A stretch of DNA of 45,810 bases from a virus (Duplodnaviria; Heunggongvirae; Uroviricota; Caudoviricetes): IMG/VR virus record IMGVR_UViG_2521172732_000010, one strand, 5' to 3'. The notes under the pieces are model-generated. The model did not search any database. It was given only the letters and a program-made list of their open reading frames with translations, and was not told the origin of the DNA. Numbering within the stretch: position 1 is the first letter of the stretch; every line of letters begins with the position of its first letter. Positions 14,865 through 16,764 of the stretch are shown piece by piece. A program made the translations under genes and the position numbers.

Positions 14865-15080
14865 ATGAAATCAATGGACAAAATCTCAACTGGCATTGCC
14901 TACGGAACATCTGCTGGTAGTGCGGGATACTGGTTTTTGCAGTGGTTGGATCAGGTCAGTCCGTCACAGTGGGCTGCGATTGGTGTACTGGGGAGTCTGA
15001 TTCTGGGCTTCCTGACTTATCTGACAAATCTGTACTTCAAAATCAGAGAAGACAAGCGTAAGGCTGCACGGGGAGAGTAA
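14865..15080 (+). CDS. S: class II holin (phage 21 S pinholin type, dual start)
   Basis: 71-aa [39 protein letters not shown]... matching my recollection of S21. Confidence 0.9.
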
Positions 15081-15084
15081 TTCA

Positions 15085-15429
15085 ATGACTCAAAACTATG
15101 AACTGATTGTGAAAGGGATCCGCAATTTTGAGAATAAAGTTGCGGTAACTGTAGCATTACGGGACAAAAAACGCTTTGACGGTGAAATTTTTGACCTGGA
15201 CATCTCGCTGGACCGTGTTGAAGGTGCCGCGCTGGAGTTTTATGAGGCGGCAGCCAGAAGGAGCATCAGACAGGTCTTCCTGGATGTTGCTGCCGGGTTA
15301 TGTGGAGGGGATGAGCAGTCGCCGGAAAAGCGCCCCATAATTTTAGAGGCGCAGAGTGTGTGGATAACCTACAAAGGAAAACTGCCGGGAAGAATTACTG
15401 GTTCACTGAAGACTCCGCCGAAATGGTAA
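15085..15429 (+). CDS. YdfR-like protein (DUF1327-type), between holin and endolysin
   Basis: 114-aa ORF starting 5 nt after the holin stop; resembles my recollection of Qin prophage YdfR. Confidence 0.6.
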   Translation: MTQNYELIVKGIRNFENKVAVTVALRDKKRFDGEIFDLDISLDRVEGAALEFYEAAARRSIRQVFLDVAAGLCGGDEQSPEKRPIILEAQSVWITYKGKLPGRITGSLKTPPKW

Positions 15430-15667
15430 TTTCACCAGCATATTTTTCCTCCATTAATACCGCCAGCCACTTGAAAGAATTTTGTTGTTGCTGGGACCAT
15501 TTGGGATTGAGTGATTCAAGCTGGAGCGATGCCAGTGTTGGTTGCATTTGTTCCTTGGGAATTGAGAATGCCAGATATGAAAATGCGACAGTAAGGGCAT
15601 TTACATCATCCCGAAGCTTGGAAATGCAGTCGAGCAACTCCTGTAGAGAAATGGTGCTATTGTCCAT
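15395..15667 (-). CDS. hypothetical antisense small protein (about 90 aa) in the holin-endolysin gap
   Basis: Minus-strand ORF with ATG at 15667 preceded by an agagagga RBS-like motif and ttgaat / taaata promoter-like elements; no recognisable homology. Confidence 0.3.
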   Translation of the reverse strand: MDNSTISLQELLDCISKLRDDVNALTVAFSYLAFSIPKEQMQPTLASLQLESLNPKWSQQQQNSFKWLAVLMEEKYAGEITISAESSVNQ

Positions 15668-15772
15668 AAACAATCCTCTCTATTGTATTTAACTATTCCT
15701 TGCCTGATTCAACAGGCCGGGACAGATAAACATATCCAGGGTTCAGAAACCGATAAATCCTGATAAATATCC

Positions 15773-16306
15773 ATGAACGCAAAAATCAGATACGGCCTGT
15801 CGGCTACTGTACTAGTGCTGATTGGTGCAGGCGCGTCTGCTCCGCAAATACTTGACCAGTTTCTGGACGAAAAAGAAGGTAACCACACAACGGCATACCG
15901 TGATGGTTCCGGCATCTGGACCATCTGTCGGGGTGCCACGATGGTGGATGGAAAACCCGTTTTTCCCGGTATGAAACTGTCGAAGGAAAAATGCGACCAG
16001 GTTAACGCCATTGAACGTGATAAGGCGCTGGCATGGGTGGAACGTAATATTAAAGTACCACTGACCGAACCACAAAAAGCGGGTATCGCGTCGTTTTGCC
16101 CCTATAACATTGGCCCCGGTAAGTGTTTCCCGTCGACGTTTTATAAGCGGCTTAATGCCGGTGATCGTAAAGGTGCCTGTGAGTCGATTCGCTGGTGGAT
16201 TAAGGACGGTGGGCGTGATTGCCGCACACGTTCAAATAACTGCTACGGACAGGTTATTCGTCGTGACCAGGAAAGCGCATTAGCTTGTTGGGGGATAGAT
16301 CAGTGA
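15773..16306 (+). CDS. R: SAR endolysin (T4-lysozyme-like glycosidase with N-terminal signal-arrest-release domain)
   Basis: 177-aa ORF; hydrophobic N-terminus [21 protein letters not shown] then E...D...T lysozyme motif ([22 protein letters not shown]). Confidence 0.85.
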
Positions 16307-16764
16307 GAAGAGTAGCCGCGATTATCTCCGCTCTGGTTATCTGCATCATCGTCTGCCTGTCTTGGGCTGTTAATCATTACCGTGATAACGCCATTACCTA
16401 CAAAGCCCAGCGCGACAAAAATGCCAGAGAACTGAAGCTGGCGAACGCGGCAATTACTGACATGCAGATGCGTCAGCGTGATGTTGCTGCGCTCGATGCA
16501 AAATACACGAAGGAGTTAGCTGATGCTAAAGCTGAAAATGATGCTCTGCGTGATGATGTTGCCGCTGGTCGTCGTCGGTTGCACATCAAAGCAGTCTGTC
16601 AGTCAGTGCGTGAAGCCACCACCGCCTCCGGCGTGGATAATGCAGCCTCCCCCCGACTGGCAGACACCGCTGAACGGGATTATTTCACCCTCAGAGAGAG
16701 GCTGATCACTATGCAAAAACAACTGGAAGGAACCCAGAAGTATATTAATGAGCAGTGCAGATAG
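16303..16764 (+). CDS. Rz: i-spanin Rz (GTG start overlapping R stop)
   Basis: Matches lambda Rz from ...[41 protein letters not shown]... to the C-terminus. Confidence 0.9.
16523..16705 (+). CDS. Rz1: o-spanin Rz1 lipoprotein, embedded in Rz in the +1 frame
   Basis: 60-aa [26 protein letters not shown]... with proline-rich segment. Confidence 0.9.

Follow-up and report, generated by a model that had tools for sequence, protein, structure and literature searches.

The stretch of DNA analysed here (hereafter the window; 45,810 nucleotides, Caudoviricetes record IMGVR_UViG_2521172732_000010) carries a late leader and a set of lysis genes in a region that has an annotated counterpart in RefSeq, a prophage at icd. 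The features, with the evidence for each, are as follows.

14015..14529, plus strand: disrupted Q21-like antiterminator gene (PF06530, E 6.5e-18).
14507..14536, plus strand: pR'-like late promoter, TTGACA-18-CATAAT, with the direct repeat AATTAGCC present twice (11/12 consensus match; placed as pR'/QBE is in the annotation of phage 21).
14544..14587, plus strand: tR'-like intrinsic terminator, made up of a long hairpin and a run of six T after it (RNAfold -20.3 kcal/mol for hairpin and U-tract; counterpart of the terminator annotated in phage 21).
14592..14666, plus strand: tRNA gene with anticodon GAT (Ile) (ARAGORN; Rfam tRNA 47.2 bits; alignment to phage 21).
14672..14747, plus strand: tRNA-Thr (TGT), identical to the phage 21 copy (ARAGORN; Rfam 61.5 bits; alignment; PGAP annotation).
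14865..15080, plus strand: S, class II holin/pinholin with dual starts (PF04971, E 1.4e-35, above the gathering score).
15085..15429, plus strand: ydfR-like gene, DUF1327, 114 aa (PF07041, E 2e-42; PHROGs 2091 and 406; alignment with Qin YdfR and phage homologues).
15425..15750, no strand assigned: present/absent cassette carrying a 90-aa gene (alignment; GC content; variant contexts).
15395..15667, minus strand: conserved gene for a 90-aa protein, convergent with the late operon (PGAP CDS WP_000370547; PHROG 2411, E 8e-59).
15773..16306, plus strand: R, GH24 muramidase of the RrrQ/933W-R lineage, probable SAR endolysin, 177 aa (PF00959, E 2e-24; PDB matches 3hde/4zpu).
16303..16764, plus strand: lambda-type Rz i-spanin (PF03245, E 2.9e-54; 151/153 aa identical to lambda Rz).
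16523..16705, plus strand: Rz1 o-spanin lipoprotein, encoded wholly within Rz in the +1 frame (PF06085, E 2.9e-20; 60/60 aa identical to lambda Rz1; frame offset 1).
16796..17089, minus strand: bor serum-resistance lipoprotein gene (PF06291, E 1e-30; 96/97 aa identical to lambda Bor).

An earlier note on this DNA had placed S, the ydfR-like gene, the lysozyme gene, Rz and Rz1, and all of its coordinates held to the base; the Pfam matches of these five ORFs are far above chance level. We are confident, if short of certain, that they are the late-operon lysis genes of a phage-21/lambda-like Escherichia coli prophage beside icd, comprising an S21-type dual-start pinholin, a GH24 lysozyme of the RrrQ/933W-R lineage that is Sec-exported and tethered to the membrane, and a lambda-type embedded Rz/Rz1 pair. 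Phage 21 likewise integrates beside icd.

The leader is laid out as in phage 21, with promoter, terminator and two tRNA genes in both, although identity to that phage is only 65-72% over the C-terminal half of Q and the promoter region. The two copies of AATTAGCC occupy the place of the phage 21 Q-binding element, and by analogy the segment at 14507..14536 would function as a pR'-like promoter. The first tRNA gene differs from the phage 21 tRNA-Asn(GTT) at three positions, the middle anticodon base among them; the changes fall in the anticodon and the T-arm, and the gene is without PGAP annotation. Direct reading of Q revealed a 4-bp deletion after 14096 that creates a TAG at 14095-14097 and leaves an N-terminal fragment of 27 aa, while the remainder of the frame is open from GTG 14080 to 14529. 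Aligned to NZ_CP077477, the deletion appears as a 4-bp ATTC gap, and it was present in none of the 757 genomes that hold this Q segment. The major capsid gene is also interrupted by an internal stop, and because of these two lesions the cassette may be permanently silent in this strain.

We give some credence, while leaning the other way, to the reading that the lysis cassette is an intact-looking but silent relic within a cryptic prophage, its genes kept only by drift or by occasional recombination with incoming phages. The truncation of Q by a deletion absent from those 757 genomes, the stop that splits the capsid gene and the altered, unannotated first tRNA all speak for it. Against this, the five lysis ORFs and the two passenger ORFs are all intact, a restart of Q at GTG 14080 is possible, and the Q deletion may reflect faulty assembly of the sequence from which the window comes, which differs from the RefSeq record by several further 1-bp indels. 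Moreover, silence would bear on the expression state of the cassette and not on its identity.

The S ORF encodes 71 aa and opens with MKSM, the motif from which the earlier note had recognized an S21-type dual-start pinholin. Comparison with S21 bore this out: 69 of 71 residues are identical (97.2%), the two differences being V46I and R64K, and a GGAGG lies 8 nt 5' of Met1, as it does in phage 21. Initiation at Met1 is predicted to give a 71-aa antiholin-type form and initiation at Met4 (14874) a 68-aa holin form. The first transmembrane segment is weakly hydrophobic and has 19 residues, 63% of them Gly, Ala, Ser or Thr, and the second, as read from the sequence, retains G40-x3-S44-x3-G48, a glycine-zipper-like motif; the role of the second-segment motif has been described (PMC9025707). 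By analogy with S21, we infer that S makes nanometre-scale, heptameric pinholes, which would depolarise the membrane without letting folded endolysin through. The holin of 933W is also of the S21 family, while that of Qin is only 80% identical to S. Searches of NCBIfam and PADLOC with S, YdfR, the 90-aa protein and neighbouring small genes gave no match.

The spacing between holin and endolysin had been put at about 700 bp, close to the 692 bp we counted from the S stop to the start of R, which has the same orientation as S; the last 343 bp of this lie between the ydfR stop and R. In phage 21 nothing separates the two genes, R21 overlapping the S stop, whereas here ydfR and an antisense gene intervene. 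The separation had been called unusual, a description that a broader comparison does not sustain. Of 5426 complete E. coli genomes, 1129 contain the segment made up of the end of ydfR and the antisense gene, and E. coli genomes with the same architecture number in the hundreds to thousands. Qin carries ydfR between essQ and rrrQ, and 933W (S-R-ant-Rz/Rz1-bor) carries ant between R and Rz, so that passenger genes are inserted in its lysis cassette too, in a different place from the S-R position occupied here.

The first of the two intervening genes is a YdfR homologue, as previously proposed, with a PF07041 match at E 2e-42. Its residues 1-70 (~70 aa) are conserved and align with Qin YdfR, in agreement with conservation of the first ~69 codons of the Qin gene, while the C-terminus is variable. 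In Qin YdfR the conserved N-terminal domain (residues 1-72) is reported to bind the RNase E catalytic domain and RNA (PMC13232886); a literature search for DUF1327 returned only an unrelated genomics mention.

The remaining interval, previously described as a 340-bp gap, is not empty, since the conserved 90-aa minus-strand gene lies inside it. We found 62 clusters of homologues of this gene, those with named hosts being nearly all from Escherichia or Shigella, and across six copies with protein divergence of up to 26% the pooled pN/pS was 0.37 and dN/dS ranged from 0.17 to 0.67 in every pair. At a relaxed threshold the only Rfam matches were the two tRNAs, and the 343-bp interval gave no hit to a riboswitch or sRNA. 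The cassette that carries the gene has a GC content of 42.6%, compared with 48-51% in neighbouring genes, and is replaced in vB_EcoS-689R5 by ~55 unrelated bp; elsewhere the gene occurs without ydfR and beside different endolysin sets. By its presence or absence in collinear phages, its opposite orientation and its distinct GC content, the 90-aa gene behaves as a present/absent moron.

We consider it very unlikely that the 343-bp interval is instead a non-coding scar of recombination or serves R as a 5' leader, with the minus-strand ORF an artefact of annotation. Such a reading could draw on our consensus scan, which found no sigma-70 promoter 5' of the ORF and no terminator, on the lack of a Pfam, NCBIfam or PADLOC family or a structural neighbour (no match with E below 1 when the model was compared with the PDB by Foldseek), and on a 110-aa plus-strand ORF (15360-15692) that is also open in the window. 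However, the minus-strand frame is the sole frame open in 6/6 diverged copies, and its pN/pS is the low value given above; we rejected the 110-aa ORF as a real gene because it contains stops in 5/6 relatives. In addition, the 90-aa gene has a good Shine-Dalgarno sequence (GAGAGGA, 6 nt 5' of the ATG), its product shows conservative replacements across 31 aligned homologues and is predicted to form three helices (AF2 pLDDT 79.5), and the gene is found in places without ydfR. The modest point to be taken from the interval, read as housing a genuine gene, is that what fills the gap is conserved yet uncharacterised.

A more ambitious idea, which we regard as unlikely, is that the slot between S and R houses a functional regulatory module, acting as a safeguard or timer on pinholin/SAR lysis. 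YdfR would act on RNase E and so tune the stability of the late transcript, and the 90-aa gene, if expressed in the lysogen, would damp read-through into R, either through its protein or by interfering with transcription; R would be dangerous in this respect because SAR endolysins are released spontaneously. If this were true, such a layer of control would be present in about one-fifth of E. coli genomes. The recent report of YdfR binding to RNase E offers a testable idea on why ydfR travels with lysis genes.

The lysozyme itself had been described as phage-21-type, and here the comparison pointed elsewhere. R is only 33.9% identical in protein sequence to R21 and to RrrD, with no blastn similarity over the gene, as against 93.8% identity to RrrQ and 89.8% to 933W R, although it matches R21, RrrD and other GH24 enzymes in the PDB by both sequence and fold. 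Its catalytic motif, E35-x8-D44-x5-T50, has the same numbering as in R21, and all three residues are invariant in 36 homologues. Gene order (holin, ydfR, lysozyme) is shared with Qin, as is the sequence just 5' of the R start; unlike in Qin, where ydfR ends in an overlap with the start of rrrQ and no antisense gene is found, R shows no translational coupling to the upstream ORF, and it has no recognisable Shine-Dalgarno sequence.

For the N-terminus of R, we applied published SAR criteria, namely one to three basic residues followed by a weakly hydrophobic segment of ~20 residues rich in Gly, Ala, Ser and Thr (PMC9239132). The SAR-like segment noted earlier is indeed present: MNAKIR, with basic K4 and R6, precedes a weakly hydrophobic 17-residue segment (residues 7-23; 47-60% Gly/Ala/Ser/Thr; Kyte-Doolittle 1.7-1.9, compared with 2.8-3.2 for the Rz transmembrane segment), which is followed by P24. 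Hydropathy and Gly/Ala/Ser/Thr content were dropped as a test between a SAR domain and a cleavable signal peptide, because the signal peptides of OmpA and MalE overlap the R values and the measure is therefore non-discriminating. R is probably a SAR endolysin, judging from Pro24 directly after A-S-A, from its 89.8% identity to 933W R and from the packing of residues 11-30 into the fold of the AF2 model (pLDDT 94-95).

We also consider it very unlikely that R is a soluble enzyme secreted by way of an ordinary, cleavable Sec signal peptide, in which case the pair would not be pinholin/SAR in the strict sense. The n-h-c layout (MNAKIR, 11 residues, GAGASA), the small residues at -3/-1 (A19-G-A21 and A21-S-A23), the overlap with OmpA and MalE and the replacement of Pro by Ser after A-x-A in some homologues would all suit it, but Pro24 stands directly after A21-S-A23, and proline at +1 blocks signal peptidase I. 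Further evidence against cleavage is the invariance of L9, S10, L16, G20, A21 and A23 across the 36 homologues, drawn from many genera, and the distance of ~11 residues between E35 and the hydrophobic segment, a spacing that R21 shares; the AF2 model, with residues 11-30 packed in, aligns with active R21 over its full length (171-182 Foldseek columns with full-length R21, 3hde, versus 140 with truncated R21, 3hdf). The N-terminal segment is also nearly identical to that of 933W R, a lysozyme of the same lineage that the Young laboratory has handled experimentally as a SAR endolysin, its release being accelerated by the Mu releasin (PMC9239132). A literature search on RrrQ as a signal-arrest-release endolysin found nothing. 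Pairing of a predicted SAR endolysin with a pinholin, as we assign it here, is the rule in Stx phages (PMC8136144); a literature search for Stx phages with pinholin and spanin treated together found nothing.

Downstream of R, the spanins are lambda-type, as had been stated, with identities to lambda of 98.7% for Rz, which has its transmembrane segment at the N-terminus, and 100% for Rz1, whose lipobox is VVGC; lambda and DLP12 likewise have Rz1 nested within Rz in the +1 frame. The earlier note had set these spanins in contrast to the pinholin/SAR pair, a contrast that dissolves on comparison, since Rz and Rz1 of phage 21 are themselves 97.4% and 98.3% identical to those of lambda and the DLP12 pair is also lambda-type (95-97% identical to Rz/Rz1 of the window). 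Rz starts at GTG 16303, which overlaps the R stop as GTGA, an overlap used in DLP12 too; the longest Rz ORF begins at TTG 16285, but this start was rejected because GTG 16303 agrees with the PGAP annotation and with the Rz starts of lambda, phage 21 and DLP12. The block of Rz/Rz1, bor, ybcV and ybcW, from 16301/16304 to beyond 18700, is 98.5% identical in DNA to lambda and 97.9% to DLP12, and Rz/Rz1/bor of phage 21 is of the same lambda type (94% DNA identity). Within this lambda-like block, bor is a classic moron and closes it. Among other relatives, 933W also has Rz/Rz1 and bor downstream, though its Rz is a different allele; the Qin spanin is unrelated, of DUF2514 type. Elsewhere in the cassette lambda differs in its large-hole holin S105 and cytoplasmic transglycosylase R, and DLP12 in its R21-type lysozyme.

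From the near-identity of these proteins to studied ones, we infer the following course of lysis. Q-modified RNA polymerase from pR' would pass tR' and the two tRNA genes and enter S, and the 68-aa holin form would build up in the inner membrane until it triggers, opening nanometre-scale pinholes and collapsing the proton motive force. The SAR segment of R would then exit the bilayer, allowing the enzyme to refold so that E35, D44 and T50 become competent and murein is cleaved, after which Rz/Rz1 would disrupt the outer membrane. The ydfR-like gene and the 90-aa gene between S and R would be passengers, dispensable for this pathway.

Given an annotated, standard gene set and a holin-lysozyme "gap" filled by two common passenger genes, we judge the cassette to be ordinary: the region is an already known mosaic lambdoid lysis set, annotated in RefSeq. 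Its significance beyond correct annotation is small; each component has a close relative among lambdoid genes that are studied or annotated (S21, 933W R/RrrQ, lambda Rz/Rz1, Qin YdfR).

The boundaries between modules had been proposed as recombination joints. Joints are real, yet they lie on a finer scale than gene boundaries: one falls inside Q at ~14280, a second inside S at 14984, where 119 nt (14865-14983) that are 100% identical to phage 21 give way to about 78% identity, and a third inside ydfR, where identity to Qin collapses past ~15290. Further joints lie around the 90-aa cassette and where the R stop overlaps the Rz start, and the patchwork probably arose as lambdoid prophages recombined through homologous and short-homology exchange. 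Joints of this fineness, including the one at the NTGA stop/start overlap of R and Rz, illustrate the swapping of lysis modules among lambdoid phages. The R-Rz joint was placed at 16303-16315, and all nucleotide differences but one between Rz and its lambda counterpart lie within the first 13 nt of the gene.

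The lysis genes of the window, comprising an S21-type holin gene (S), a GH24 lysozyme gene (R) and the spanin genes Rz and Rz1, make up a lambdoid lysis cassette of a kind that is already known, annotated and widespread. The earlier note placed S, the ydfR-like gene, R and Rz/Rz1 exactly, as confirmed for all of them by ORFs and family matches, and its description was accurate, but its sense of anomaly was misplaced and its endolysin label was wrong at the lineage level.

Features of the lysis cassette and its flanks (window positions)
14507-14536, 5′ of S: pR′-like promoter, TTGACA-18-CATAAT
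14865-15080, plus strand: S, class II holin; 71-aa ORF starting MKSM; PF04971 (phage 21 holin family), E 1.4e-35
15085-15429, plus strand: ydfR-like gene; 114-aa ORF; DUF1327/YdfR match, E 2e-42
15395-15667, minus strand: 90-aa gene; PGAP WP_000370547; PHROG 2411, E 8e-59, full length
15773-16306, plus strand: R, lysozyme; 177-aa ORF; Phage_lysozyme match, E 2e-24
GTG 16303 to 16764, plus strand: Rz; PF03245, E 2.9e-54
16523-16705, plus strand: Rz1, in the +1 frame of Rz; PF06085, E 2.9e-20
16796-17089, minus strand: bor (lipoprotein gene), after Rz/Rz1
17381-18283, 3′ of bor: ybcV (DUF1398) and ybcW homologues; about 98% DNA identity to lambda and DLP12; no PADLOC match

The spacing is 692 bp from S to R and 343 bp from ydfR to R. 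An upstream TTG was rejected as the start of Rz in favor of the GTG at 16303, whose overlap with the R stop reads GTGA. DLP12 shares this overlap, and its equivalent in lambda and phage 21 is ATGA. For Escherichia coli O111:H21 strain 15A (NZ_CP077477), we noted a near-identical prophage adjacent to icd, the gene that flanks the phage 21 integration site, and PGAP annotates its cassette as class II holin, YdfR family protein, hypothetical protein (minus strand), lysozyme, RzpD and Bor.

Comparison of the individual proteins showed that S is 97.2% identical to phage 21 S21, 86% to DLP12 EssD, 80% to Qin EssQ and 76% to 933W S, while Rz is 98.7% identical to lambda and 96.7% to phage 21, and Rz1 and Bor are 100% and 99% identical to their lambda counterparts. 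Because the Rz and Rz1 of phage 21 themselves share 97.4% and 98.3% identity with those of lambda, phage 21 and DLP12 natively combine an S21-type holin with lambda-type spanins, and the pairing is not the contrast that had been proposed. The part that departs from phage 21 is the lysozyme: R has 33.9% identity to R21/RrrD (the phage 21 and DLP12 endolysins) versus 93.8% to Qin RrrQ and 89.8% to 933W R, and blastn found no phage 21 similarity between 15081 and 16301. Nor is the separation of S from R unusual. Of 5426 complete E. coli genomes, 1129 carry the segment 15300-15772 at a coverage of at least 80%, and phage Chlobot has it at 97.9% identity; the whole 14500-17300 stretch occurs in 116 genomes. 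In Qin, ydfR separates essQ from rrrQ. In Stx2 phage 86, a long DUF1327 gene and an antisense ORF separate S from R, and ant separates R from Rz, as it also does in 933W. S21-type cassettes with interruptions are common.

R is, with high probability, a SAR endolysin, as predicted from its sequence and structural models. Its N-terminus carries two basic residues (K4, R6) followed by a 17-residue weakly hydrophobic stretch with a hydropathy of 1.7-1.9, against 2.8-3.2 for the Rz membrane anchor, and 47-60% Gly/Ala/Ser/Thr; the catalytic E35-x8-D44-x5-T50, numbered as in R21, lies about 11 residues past this segment. Hydropathy by itself would also accommodate a cleavable signal peptide. Pro24 immediately follows A21-S-A23, and proline at +1 blocks signal peptidase I, although this proline is absent in some homologues. 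In the AlphaFold2 model, residues 11-30 lie within the fold (pLDDT 94-95), and its alignment with full-length R21 (3hde) spans 171-182 columns, versus only 140 with truncated R21 (3hdf), which fits the segment joining the soluble enzyme. The N-terminal segment is nearly identical to that of 933W R. The Young laboratory has used 933W R as a SAR endolysin; the Mu releasin speeds its release (PMC9239132). In the classification of Pinto et al., the endolysins common in Stx phages are predicted SAR enzymes with pinholin partners (PMC8136144).

The recombination joints suspected at module boundaries are real, but identity profiles against phage 21, Qin and lambda place them more finely than gene boundaries. 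Identity to phage 21 is about 98% over 14000-14279, save for bins with the start of the antiterminator gene Q and a 4-bp deletion, 65-72% over 14280-14559 (the C-terminal half of Q, the promoter and the presumed Q-binding repeats), 92-100% over 14560-14983, and about 78-80% between 14984 and the S stop, where changes are nearly all synonymous and the S 3′ end resembles the Qin/933W type. The low-identity stretch between well-matched flanks, together with a direct repeat, AATTAGCC ×2, at the place in the promoter region that the Q-binding element occupies in phage 21, suggests that the Q specificity domain and its putative binding site were swapped together. Identity to Qin runs through the first ~69 ydfR codons, collapses after ~15290, returns 10 nt 5′ of the R start and stops exactly at the R stop; from 16304 to past 18700, identity to lambda is 98.5%, with 4 of the 5 differences from lambda Rz in its first 13 nt. 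The R/Rz switch maps to the NTGA stop/start overlap common to every compared cassette with Rz directly after R (lambda, phage 21, DLP12, Qin).

Between ydfR and R, the 343-bp interval previously described as a gap holds the conserved minus-strand 90-aa gene, which behaves as a moron. Its final 35 nt lie over the 3′ end of ydfR, and a Shine-Dalgarno sequence (GAGAGGA) lies 6 nt 5′ of its ATG; a promoter consensus scan found none. Its GC content (42.6%) is below that of its neighbors and near that of bor, it is also found between S and R without ydfR, and 15425-15750 is replaced by ~55 unrelated bp in phage vB_EcoS-689R5. The 62 homologue clusters, nearly all Escherichia or Shigella where species are named (one partial is labelled Pseudomonas), reach down to ~62% protein identity, with the 90-codon length kept in most. 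Its frame is the sole one open in all six copies from different contexts, with a pooled pN/pS of 0.37 and pairwise dN/dS of 0.17 to 0.67. A plus-strand ORF across the gene, open in the window, was rejected because it has stops in 5 of the 6 copies. The AlphaFold2 model has three helices (pLDDT 79.5) and no PDB structural neighbor, and the protein has no defense-system or NCBIfam match. Two further arrangements occur in Stx prophages (L020-L022, e.g., L022 2165-3803, and L013 1589-3664). In some, a second, unrelated lysis set (holin_8, holin_3_7 and an M15 peptidase) takes the place of the GH24 lysozyme after the S21-type holin gene, ydfR and the 90-aa gene, so that the apparent partner of the pinholin is a non-SAR endolysin set; others have a ParDE toxin-antitoxin pair 3′ of the lysozyme.

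For the mechanism, we infer function from demonstrated homology, drawing also on the pinholin/SAR lysis scheme of the phage 21 literature. Q-dependent read-through from pR′ would transcribe S, ydfR, R and Rz/Rz1; S would build up in its Met4 form, trigger and form pinholes that depolarize the inner membrane, with the Met1 form, which has one extra Lys, as antiholin; tethered R would then be let go, refold and break down murein, and Rz/Rz1 would act last, disrupting the outer membrane. Pinholin and SAR behavior follow published descriptions (PMC9239132, PMC9025707). No Shine-Dalgarno sequence was found 5′ of R in 15750-15772 (GATAAATCCTGATAAATATCC), the 23 nt before its ATG that are kept in all variants. 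In Qin the equivalent sequence is the ydfR 3′ end, giving ATGA stop/start coupling to rrrQ, whereas in the window no upstream ORF ends at the R start and R is uncoupled. YdfR is probably an accessory protein. Qin YdfR binds the RNase E catalytic domain via residues 1-72 and co-purifies with RNA (PMC13232886), and this is the part conserved in the window, while the C-terminus varies.

The region upstream of S contains a Q21-like antiterminator gene, the pR′-like promoter, a strong terminator hairpin (-20.3 kcal/mol) and two tRNA genes, the promoter/terminator/two-tRNA arrangement of the annotated phage 21 genome. Relative to NZ_CP077477, Q (14015-14529) has a 4-bp ATTC deletion after 14096 that creates a TAG and cuts Q to 27 aa. 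This deletion is found in none of the 757 complete E. coli genomes with the Q segment, indicating either an inactivating mutation confined to this strain or an error of assembly; if it is real, the cassette, though intact, is probably silent. The lambda E-like major capsid gene (24947-25999) is split by an internal stop into two ORFs (24947-25672 and 25688-25999) and marked as a pseudogene in RefSeq, so the prophage is probably defective. Compared with NZ_CP077477, the left end (1-2705) is non-collinear, 1-1647 and 2705-45810 matching separately with an offset, and elsewhere there are 6 substitutions and several 1-bp indels; the window thus derives from a close relative or another assembly and not from that very record. 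The first tRNA 3′ of pR′ (14592-14666), left unannotated by PGAP, reads as tRNA-Ile(GAT) (47 bits, Rfam) with only three differences from phage 21 tRNA-Asn(GTT), one at the central position of the anticodon and another within the T-arm, and may be an anticodon-shifted or decaying tRNA.
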